From assembly GCA_964016885.1 (NCBI GenBank), contig CAXHJY010000872.1, forward strand, positions 1 through 64,000: DNA of 64,000 nucleotides. The letters run 5' to 3'. Each line of letters starts with the position of its first letter. Position 1 is the stretch's first letter. This DNA comes from Eledone cirrhosa. Its lineage: Eukaryota. The notes under the pieces are model-generated. The model was not told the DNA's origin. It ran no database searches and worked only from the letters and a program-made list of their open reading frames with translations. Position numbers and translations under genes: made by a program. This document shows, piece by piece, positions 4,148 to 23,963 of the stretch.

Positions 4148-4151
<4 letters not shown>

Positions 4152-4340
4152 CATAACAAAGGAATTGTGGTAAGGAACCAGATGGACCATAACGCACCAT
4201 AGTACTCAATACTTAGTGGGAAATAGGAACAAGTATCACCCCGACGGTAGAGCTCAAGCAGTTTCGTTGGCTATTTCTGGACTCAGTCCAGAAATAGCCG
4301 TCGAAACGGCTTGAGCTCTGCCGTCGGGGTCATACTTTTT

Positions 4341-4345
<5 letters not shown>
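4148..4345. mobile_element. Fold-back element family C carrying two half-hammerheads
   Basis: Arms ~4223-4282 and 4286-4345; right arm GAA-ACGGC ttgagctct GCCGT-C-GGGGTC; (TA)n on both sides. Confidence 0.75.
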
Positions 4346-15024: not shown

Positions 15025-15455
15025 CTTCAAAATATTAATAAATATAGACATTCATGTGATCAAATATATTTTATTATACATATTTCAGAGGTACTGAGCT
15101 ATTTCTTCAGTACGTCCTCATCAGATAAAATAAGTTGATGCCTGACATACCTTGACTATGTTGATGGTTATAATTCAGTCATGGCAGTTTAATTATAACC
15201 ATCAACATAGTCAAGGTATGTCAAGCATCAACTTATTTCATCTGATTAGGACGTACTGTTGAAATAGCTCAGTACCTCTGAAATATGTATAATAAAATAT
15301 ATTTGATGACATGAATGTCTATATTTATTAATATTTTGAAGTAATATTAATAACTCCAGAAAACCTTACTGTAGTGTGCTTCTAATCTATTGTGAAACTT
15401 TATTCATTGATTAATTCATTGAACCCTGTTAAACTTTTAATCAAATTATCAATAT
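15021..15455. mobile_element. HHR element family B fold-back
   Basis: ~155-bp arms 15021-15175 / 15191-15345, right arm extends to (TA)n; each arm has an HHR reading outward. Confidence 0.8.
15068..15131 (-). ncRNA. Hammerhead ribozyme motif (family B)
   Basis: TTTTAT-CTGATGA-GGACGTACTG...CAGTACCTCT-GAA-ATATGTAT-A-ATAAAA. The partner at 15235-15300 (+) has a CTGATTA core mutation. Confidence 0.7.
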
Positions 15456-17704: not shown

Positions 17705-17996
17705 AAAAACAAATAAAGAAACGAAATTAAATTTCGTTTCATTTGTAACTCACTTTTGTATGACTGACGCTTAAACAATTAAGTTAAAGATGTACATCCA
17801 TATATGTATACTGAAATACTAGTATGTATATGAATACACACACGTATACATATGTAGATGTACCAAGTTTTTTCACTGGTCACTTTACTGTGAGTGGCAG
17901 CTATTCTGTATGTAAACACACAGACAAACCGTTTTTAGAGTCATACTGGTTTTTGAGGAAACACCTTTCCTCTATTCTCCAGAAAGCCAGACAAGG

Positions 17997-18041
17997 AATA
18001 TTGAACTAGTTTCGTTGTTGTTACAACTCATCAGCAATATT
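17997..18041 (-). ncRNA. Minimal type I hammerhead ribozyme (family R)
   Basis: AATATTG-CTGATGA-GTTG taacaa CAAC-GAA-ACTAGT-T-CAATATT on reverse strand. Confidence 0.85.
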
Positions 18042-18796
18042 TACCTATCTTCCGGCCTCTCTAGAGAATCGTAAAAGCACATATCGTTATATGCTTTTTC
18101 TATGAAAATTAGTAGTGGGCAGACTAATTTGCATAGAGTGTGAGTAAGTACCGGTTCAACGGAGACGATAAAAACAAATAACGAAACGAAATTAAATTTC
18201 GTTTCATTTGTAACTCACTTTTGTATGACTGACGCTTAAACAATTAAGTTAAAGATGTACATCCATATATGTATACTGAAATACTAGTATGTATATGAAT
18301 ACACACACGTATACATATGTAGATGTACCAAGTTTTTTTCACTGGTCACTTTACTGTGAGTGGCCAGCTAATTCTGTATGTAAACACAACAGACAAACCG
18401 GTTTTTAGAGTCATACTGGTTTTTGAGGAAACACCTTTCCTCTATTCTCCAGAAAGCCAGACAACAATAGCTGGCCACTCACAGTAAAGTGACCAGTGAA
18501 AAAACTTGGTACATCTACATATGTATACGTGTGTGTATTCATATACATACTAGTATTTCAGTATACATATATGGATGTACATCTTTAACTTAATTGTTTA
18601 AGCGTCAGTCATACAAAAGTGAGTTACAAATGAAACGAAATTTAATTTCGTTTCGTTATTTGTTTTTATCGTCTCCGTTGAACCGGGTACTTACTCACAC
18701 TCTATGCAAATTAGTCTGCCCACTACTAATTTTCATAGAAAAAGCATATAACGATATGTGCTTTTACGATTCTCTAGAGAGGCCGGAAGATAGGTA

Positions 18797-18841
18797 AATA
18801 TTGCTGATGAGTTGTAACAACAACGAAACTAGTTCAATATT
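18797..18841 (+). ncRNA. Minimal type I hammerhead ribozyme (family R)
   Basis: Perfect core, 7-bp helix I, 4-bp helix II, palindromic ACTAGT helix III, GUU triplet. Confidence 0.85.
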
Positions 18842-19263
18842 CCTTGTCTGGCTTTCTGGAGAATAGAGGAAAGGTGTTTCCTCAAAAACCAGTATGACTC
18901 TAAAAACCGGTTTGTCTGTGTGTTTACATACAGAATAGCTGGCCACTCACAGTAAAGTGACCAGTGAAAAAACTTGGTACATCTACATATGTATACGTGT
19001 GTGTATTCATATACATACTAGTATTTCAGTATACATATATGGATGTACATCTTTAACTTAATTGTTTAAGCGTCAGTCATACAAAAGTGAGTTACAAATG
19101 AAACGAAATTTAATTTCGTTTCGTTATTTGTTTTTATCGTCTCCGTTGAACCGGTACTTACTCACACTCTATGCAAATTAGTCTGCCCACTACTAATTTT
19201 CATAGAAAAAGCATATAACGATATGTGCTTTTACGATTCTCTAGAGAGGCCGGAAGATAGGTA

Positions 19264-19308
19264 AATATTGCTGATGAGTTGTAACAACAACGAAACTAGT
19301 TCAATATT
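19264..19308 (+). ncRNA. Minimal type I hammerhead ribozyme (family R)
   Basis: Identical to 18797-18841. Confidence 0.85.
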
Positions 19309-19730
19309 CCTTGTCTGGCTTCTGGAGAATAGAGGAAAGGTGTTTCCTCAAAAACCAGTATGACTCTAAAAACCGGTTTGTCTGTGTGTTTACATACAGA
19401 ATAGCTGGCCACTCACAGTAAAGTGACCAGTGAAAAAACTTGGTACATCTACATATGTATACGTGTGTGTATTCATATACATACTAGTATTTCAGTATAC
19501 ATATATGGATGTACATCTTTAACTTAATTGTTTAAGCGTCAGTCACTACAAAAGTGAGTTACAAATGAAACGAAATTTAATTTCGTTTCGTTATTTGTTT
19601 TTATCGTCTCCGTTGAACCGGTACTTACTCACACTCTATGCAAATTAGTCTGCCCACTACTAATTTTCATAGAAAAAGCATATAACGATATGTGCTTTTA
19701 CGATTCTCTAGAGAGGCCGGAAGATAGGTA

Positions 19731-19775
19731 AATATTGCTGATGAGTTGTAACAACAACGAAACTAGTTCAATATC
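19731..19775 (+). ncRNA. Minimal type I hammerhead ribozyme (family R)
   Basis: Same motif, one distal helix I change. Confidence 0.85.
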
Positions 19776-20013
19776 CCTTGTCTGGCTTTCTGGAGAATAG
19801 AGGAAAGGTGTTTCCTCAAAACCAGTATGACTCTAAAAACCGGTTTGTCTGTGTGTTTACATACAGAATAGCTGGCCACTCACAGTAAGTGACCAGTGAA
19901 AAAACTTGGTACATCTACATATGTTATACGTGTGTGTATTCATATACATACTAGTATTTCAGTATACATATATGGATGTACATCTTTAACTTAATTGCAT
20001 ATATATATACATA

Positions 20014-23734: not shown

Positions 23735-23963
23735 ATAGGAATATGTTCAGGACTTCGACGGCAGAGCTGAAGCCTTTTCGACGGCTATTTCTGGGCTGAA
23801 ATAGTCGTCTGGACTGAAATAGTCCAGAAATAGCCGTCGAAACGGCTTGGGCTGTGCTGTCGGGGTCCCGAACATTTTCCTATTACCCACTCTACTACCC
23901 GAAGTATCGAGGACTCTGGTGCGTTATGGTCCACCTGGTTTCTAACCACACTTCCTTCGTTAT
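23735..23963. mobile_element. Fold-back element family C
   Basis: Arms around apex ~23800; GAAACGGC...GCTGTC-GGGGTC; TA flanks. Confidence 0.7.

Follow-up and report, generated by a model that had tools for sequence, protein, structure and literature searches.

Fold-back insertions in the Eledone cirrhosa genome as paired pseudo-LTR fragments of a Penelope-like element, probably primed twice on one RNA

Introduction

Four fold-back insertions in a 64,000-nucleotide stretch of Eledone cirrhosa DNA (contig CAXHJY010000872.1; called the window below) carry half of a hammerhead ribozyme on each of two head-to-head arms. How a ribozyme comes to be halved and mirrored in this way is the question that the locus raises. 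A first-pass annotation, made from the letters alone, placed the four in one family (family C) and proposed that the cDNA snaps back on the hairpin of helix II and self-primes its second strand, so that the ribozyme fold would set the structure of the insertion. Alternatively, it considered a palindromic derivative that propagates as its own unit and is perhaps cleaved in trans.

Structure of the fold-backs

All four family C fold-backs were confirmed at their annotated positions, 4148, 23735, 30009 and 36278 (Table 1). Their arms read outward as GAAA, a 5-bp helix III, the GUC triplet and GGGGTC, which is the 3' half of a type I hammerhead, and the 5' half of the core is missing from every one of them, as had been described. 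All are asymmetric: one arm ends 42 nt from GAAA (+42), at TTCC/TAT, the other about 80 nt further on, at about +112 to +124, and both ends enter (TA)n. The long arm of the first fold-back has a 10-nt deletion within its tail, and the apex of the second contains templated repeats of arm sequence. The variation reported for the loop of helix III is not free: most of the copies listed keep a palindromic GAGCTC core, and the variant at 30120, AAAGGTCA, is a degenerate copy of it. The output of the inverted-repeat finder on the window was dominated by (TA)n, and the top 150 of 556 Rfam matches, mostly to microsatellites, contained no match to family C.

Table 1. Family C features of the window
Feature	Position	Strand	Description
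Fold-back 1, arm motifs GAAA..GGGGTC	4303 / 4265	+ / -	
Fold-back 1, long arm	4153..4283	-	TYAGT A, then GAAA, helix III, GUC, helix I 3' strand, tail of ~80 nt, (TA)n
Fold-back 1, single apex base	4284		C on +, G on the sense strand of the long arm; parent has T
Fold-back 1, short arm	4285..4345	+	AGTCC to the end of helix I (TTCC/TAT), then (TA)n
Fold-back 2	23735..23963		short arm -, from 23735; long arm +, about 23821-23963
Fold-back 2, arm motifs GAAA..GGGGTC	23839 / 23779	+ / -	
Fold-back 3	30009..30234		short arm -; long arm + from 30094; second subfamily, helix II strand GATCTAGCTG
Fold-back 3, arm motifs GAAA..GGGGTC	30112 / 30053	+ / -	
Lone tail fragment, family C	30571..30613	+	between (TA)n runs
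Fold-back 4	36278..36475		long arm -, about 36278-36421; short arm + to 36475; asymmetric apex
Fold-back 4, arm motifs GAAA..GGGGTC	36431 / 36400	+ / -	

The parent element

Across the 3.0-Gb genome the exact arm pattern occurs at 40,615 places and its reversed control at none. Family C palindromes could be a large source of dsRNA in this genome. Non-folded parents, which the annotation had supposed, exist. Several of those in a position-ordered sample of matches extend upstream of the arm as ACCCC-YTGANRA-G-YTCGGCTATT, a loop of ~30 nt and AATTAGCCG-TC-GAAA. Non-folded copies lead into a frame with reverse transcriptase (RT) and GIY-YIG endonuclease, which is open for 710 aa in one locus (L096); elsewhere the family C tail enters a short ORF leader followed by ATG. 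The YRDD and VIY..YIG motifs of the L096 frame, recognized by eye, mark the single RT + GIY-YIG ORF of Penelope-like elements (PLEs) of the EN+ type. The pseudo-LTR (pLTR), the partial tandem, the inverted 5'-truncated copy and the optional tail of such elements are likewise present. The fold-backs are almost certainly paired head-to-head pLTR fragments of a PLE.

Several features of the L096 ORF are those of the Hydra clade: DKT instead of DKG (VHSDKTGNLY), a CxCX5C linker (CNCPDRSIC), CxxC and CxH around E and N (CNLCSEE..LLN..CKH), and a single Cys after VIY (by eye), with the CCHH motif absent from the endonuclease. The (TA)n target is another such trait. The N-terminal motif is RWR and aligns to RWK in the homolog P0002. 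At E<=1e-20 the ORF has 402 homologs, nearly all unnamed; scans of it against Pfam and PDB returned no match. By eye, the protein also resembles the Hydra alignments in the supplement of PMC8557442, as far as these were available. Judged by these motifs, the family C parent is likely a member of the Hydra clade. RT frames that look Penelope-like, but of different families, were seen in L100 (8336-6414, minus strand) and L095 (1097-3, minus strand). L091 has three tandem short arms at 1561-2030, each beginning at GTCC after a (TA)n-like spacer, which is likely a local duplication.

The hammerhead of the parent

The RNA of the parent pLTR is predicted to fold as a type I hammerhead, with three helices around the core. 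Across 26 parents, 94% of the cells of the fold (which count sequences, not events) are paired, and the full three-way junction appeared in two of five single folds of parents. Helix II has 9 bp and a loop of roughly 30 nt. The annotation had looked to the stem of helix III for covariation. Comparison of the subfamilies among these 26 parents showed three compensatory pairs in helix II and none in helices I and III. An Rfam search with one parent gave nothing relevant and did not detect the hammerhead.

The annotation had expected the parent core to read CUGANGA; mostly it reads UUGANAA, with a U3-A8 pair. Among the first 100 of 3,735 matches, counted by hand, 64 had U3-A8, 34 had a C3.A8 mismatch, two had U3.G8, and none had C3-G8. 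The canonical core is therefore absent from these 100 listed parents, and the 3-8 pair is preserved as U3-A8 in 64 of them; the third with C3.A8 may be impaired. The second subfamily had the canonical core in 3 of the first 100 of its 248 matches. The 3,735 exact matches to the 5' half are about one tenth of those to the 3' half, the two patterns being of different lengths, and ~90% of family C copies contain the 3' half only. Two sets of CUGANGA matches upstream of the arm were set aside: 60 at 8-38 nt were mutually unrelated and out of register and were read as chance flanks; 80 at 39-66 nt had 9-10 members in register, read as sporadic variants.

Pairing of the arms

Of 90 fold-backs, 77 join a long arm to a short one, three join two long arms, none joins two short arms, and ten have an unclassified arm. 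The arms of one fold-back differ from each other at 3.3 positions on average, against 6.7 between copies, and a subfamily-diagnostic bulge agrees between the arms in 72 of the 90, against 20% of random pairs. Among 66 apexes not chosen for their form, 65 were distinct. Taken together, the similarity of the arms, the agreement of the bulge and the distinct apexes indicate that every insertion builds its palindrome anew, from a single RNA or a single source. The 99 short arms include 11 whose long partner stops in the tail and does not overlap them, eight solo arms and ten that run past the core. These classes indicate that the short end acts as a real priming site, although the 11 junctions without overlap could instead be later deletions in a palindrome. 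TAT is common to both arm ends and to the target.

The apexes do cluster in the region of helix II, where the annotation had placed them, but they do not have the structure of the native helix II hairpin: left and right arms are reverse complements of each other, helix II lacks its native 5' strand, and the junctions vary by copy. An apex formed by a natural hairpin with flip-flop loops was rejected on the grounds that the parents have a different native 5' strand. Nor does the ribozyme fold dictate the structure of the insertion in general, as had been suggested: in other hammerhead families, of the window and of sampled loci, the apex lies 55-95 nt upstream of the core, whose CUGANGA is intact. 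These elements habitually fold back, and the stop inside helix II is found only in family C.

Where the arms stop

The stops were read from 133 arms of 75 loci along contig C1, mapped onto ten natural parents; the histogram comprises 130 of them, with three flagged second-subfamily arms left out. No fewer than 114 of the 130 stop at most 24 nt from GAAA, with 40 of them at -17/-18, whereas six end at 25-136 nt and ten extend 137 nt or more. Position -18 is the A of TYAGTY, a motif that keeps its spacing in both subfamilies, with the rest of loop II differing, and that resembles the invertebrate initiator. The pLTR of Drosophila Penelope has an internal initiator-type promoter according to the available part of PMC2377424; no match to its downstream promoter element, RGACGTGY as given there, was seen by eye in family C.

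Contigs of three public runs, possibly from the assembly's own sample, have a depth step at the stop site, and those of two of the runs have loose ends exactly at -18, +42 and +122. Of the 130 arms, 54 end short of -17, and run-off at a fixed end would have to ascribe these to end trimming or later deletion; a few second-subfamily arms score short only through their first-subfamily references. The arm stop likely corresponds to the capped 5' end of an RNA that begins at an initiator-like site within hammerhead helix II. A 3' splice site at TTTAG was ruled out as the cause of the stop: the arms retain AG. Poly(A)/(T) runs of 12-18 nt lie at the stop site in the apexes of L078, L082 and L172 and possibly reflect RT stuttering at the RNA end.

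The extra base at the apex

The cleanest apex reads TGGACT-N-AGTCCA and occurs at 118 loci. Among the first 50 of these, N is C or G in 46, and the parent base at that place is T in 99 of 100. In solo arms, for one phase of the repeat, (TA)n-G-AGTCC was read at 37 of the first 100 of 418 junctions; for the other, the first 100 of 558 gave 66 without an extra base and only six with G. Over both phases G stands at roughly a fifth of solo junctions. When the m7G cap is copied, the fixed 5' end gains a G that has no template, although RTs can also add a non-templated C without a cap. In either case the extra base marks run-off where the RNA ends, and the extra G is likely the copied cap, as is probably the base at 4284 in the first fold-back of the window. 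The G belonged to the long arm in 12, to the short arm in eight and to an unclassified arm in two of 22 cases. GC-GTCC replaces the TA-GTCC of the parent at 9 of 100 listed solo junctions, which looks like miscopying of the first RNA base beside the extra G.

Two proposed template pools

The same stop site is passed in copies of another kind. All 16 pLTRs with an intact arm that are joined to the ORF leader continue through it; seven other leader-joined pLTRs end within the tail or helix I, or lack an arm. The contrast between terminal arms (114 of 130 stop) and leader-joined pLTRs (0 of 16) has a Fisher P of about 7e-13 and indicates that stopping belongs to the RNA molecule and not to the sequence. 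All 11 inverted pairs in which one arm extends past the core, each again long plus short, have a partner arm that runs through the stop site as well. These loci were picked for having the 5' core; a complex duplication was excluded, as were ten loci with no partner within 1.5 kb, and three of the 11 pairs span separate loci with the join unread. Because the arms pass the site together (11/11) and the internal pLTRs never stop there, an explanation by jumps made independently from the stop site into the 3' repeat was discarded. As no full-length copy of the 16 ends at the proposed cap, a second template pool is required, and the copies imply that this template would be uncapped or circular. Hammerhead-made circles have been proposed for PLEs in the available text of PMC4209133.

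Origin of the palindromes

The reading that we prefer, with a probability of roughly two in three, is that two RTs prime from both ends of one cut and run off the 5' end of the same RNA. The GIY-YIG endonuclease would cut both strands of (TA)n, and the two 3' ends of the target would prime on a single RNA, each at a different UAU site: the base of helix I (+42) for one, the tail's end (+122) for the other. The long cDNA would displace the short one, and both would reach the cap, often adding C opposite it. The two cDNA 3' ends would then be fused by end joining, which would leave small deletions or templated insertions. As the start site splits the hammerhead, the 5' end of the capped RNA would retain just the GAAA/GUC half; either the mRNA or short transcripts from solo long arms could supply this template. 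The second RNA pool, circular or read-through and continuous across the stop site, would give rise to the long copies with an ORF. More tentatively, and in our view doubtfully, a promoter inside the ribozyme may keep the two templates apart, capped RNA that starts in helix II and lacks the 5' core giving tens of thousands of palindromes, and religated hammerhead circles, crossed by RT without a stop, giving the ORF copies.

An alternative builds on the snap-back of the annotation: a tail-primed cDNA would stop near helix II, fold on itself, prime the second strand and join the target at TAT microhomology. Self-priming has also been proposed for related structures in the consulted part of PMC3846280. 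Snap-back would account for arms that are nearly always of one subfamily, for the short self-templated repeats at some apexes (23780-23838 in the window; L145, L164 and L171) and for asymmetric apexes such as 36400-36430, which resemble a hairpin closed by a 6-nt loop. It predicts, however, that the extra base is always on the long arm, whereas the short arm has it in 8 of 22 cases. The short end is also the sole 3' end of non-folded and long copies, 11 short arms have the non-overlapping partner described above, and the native 5' strand of helix II is never reached. Inverted pairs of 0.3-5 kb retain the long/short polarity, and one fold-back (L094) has arms of two subfamily types. With an apex that is not the native hairpin and an extra base on either arm, snapping back on helix II fits these insertions poorly, and we consider this model quite unlikely. 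Two start sites, one stop and a G on either arm are better explained by two primers on a single sense RNA than by self-priming.

Priming from both ends could hold even if the stop were another kind of RNA 5' end or block (an endonucleolytic cut, a protein or a structure) and the G an addition by terminal transferase. The G in a minority of solo junctions, the GG and GC variants and the poly(A)/(T) runs at apexes would suit such a stop. A block should, however, also arrest cDNAs at the pLTRs upstream of the ORF, where none of 16 stops; the subfamilies share the motif as well as its 18-nt spacing, and the retained AG speaks against a splice site. A cut or block of this kind therefore appears unlikely. 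That a finished palindromic mini-element spreads as a unit, trans-cleaved or moved as DNA, is suggested by the single apex form at 118 loci and by the stereotyped ends, but it is contradicted by the almost uniformly unique apexes of the unselected set, by a central base found on either arm and by arm lengths that form a continuum into the ORF-bearing parent. We regard it as highly improbable. In a milder form of this idea, an internal promoter of the long arms may supply transcripts that act as non-autonomous templates, and each insertion would make its palindrome afresh.

Relation to known elements

L1 elements are known to form inversions by twin priming, in which two primers act on one RNA, and retroviral minus-strand strong-stop DNA is a short discrete cDNA made by run-off at a capped end. 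In family C, by contrast with both, the cDNAs usually cover one stretch, which gives a palindrome, and the copies bear no sign of efficient strand transfer. The type of element, the inverted ends, the tail and the U3-A8 core are already known. No report of the apex-to-RNA-end mapping, the rule of one long and one short arm, or the two template pools was found in the open literature; most subscription papers, Repbase and older Penelope reviews lay outside its range.

The Hydra clade of C-terminal-endonuclease PLEs, in the available text of Craig et al. 2021 (PMC8557442), shares with family C the single ORF of RT and C-terminal GIY-YIG, DKT, the CxCX5C linker, CxxC and CxH around E and N, the (TA)n target, the pLTR hammerhead, the inverted 5'-truncated partner and the optional tail on one end. 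It differs in RWK against RWR, in units that are generally under 3 kb against about 3.6 kb for the parent, in a tail of 30-40 nt against about 80, and in canonical hammerheads, where family C has mostly U3-A8, a 9-bp helix II and a loop of roughly 30 nt. Compared by eye with the consulted supplement of PMC8557442, the parent is not the listed Hydra-1_Obim: the hammerhead differs. In that supplement the hammerhead of Hydra-1_oBim has TAGTTC at the start of loop II, and the arrangement with an initiator in the loop is possibly wider.

Penelope of Adineta vaga (Arkhipova et al. 2013, PMC3846280), as far as that text was available, likewise has head-to-head inverted pLTRs, a tail on one end, a junction palindrome and, in the pLTR, an initiator-like motif. 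Its palindromes were explained there by self-priming on an antisense template, whereas the fixed 5' end of a sense RNA and the G on either arm favour two primers and sense RNA in family C. In the Poseidon element of Anolis (PAc), the purified protein cuts both strands and extends them, starting at two internal sites of the RNA (Frangieh et al. 2024, PMC11167929). According to the same partly available text, PAc belongs to a different clade, and it resembles family C in its AT-rich target, in two RT start sites that bracket the tail and in a template left uncleaved across the hammerhead site. Parts 1-2 of that account give no assignment of a start site to each target end, no run-off at the 5' end and no inverted product. 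The Cercyon PLEs of Schistosoma (Cervera and de la Pena 2014, PMC4209133), in the available account, have a type I hammerhead in the pLTR with U3-A8 and a long helix II, a palindromic loop III and pairs on opposite strands, 100-700 bp apart; their motifs are minimal, without a stable helix III, where family C has one of 5 bp.

The available parts of PMC8557442 and PMC3846280 leave open the origin of the inverted and tandem ends of PLEs and the role of the hammerhead. Family C provides natural products in their thousands, marked to the base by two start sites, one stop and a G on either arm. The terminal and internal stops (114/130 against 0/16) point to two RNA templates, and a circular intermediate becomes testable. 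Should the reading with two templates and circles be true, these copies would be genomic evidence for dimeric twin priming and for a circular intermediate of PLE transposition.

Other hammerhead repeats of the window

Head-to-head palindromes with complete CUGANGA minimal hammerheads of other families lie at 31539/31666, 35766/35913, 36958/37103 and about 15124-15260, with many more in the sampled loci. Their apexes, 55-95 nt upstream of the core, may mark the start sites of those families. Single CUGANGA..GAAA motifs of other repeat families occur at 2662, 21805, 38107, 43041 and 53238. A tandem 467-bp repeat at 17981-19900 carries an HH9-like hammerhead (18804, 19271 and 19738), with an inverted copy at 18034, and is retrozyme-like.
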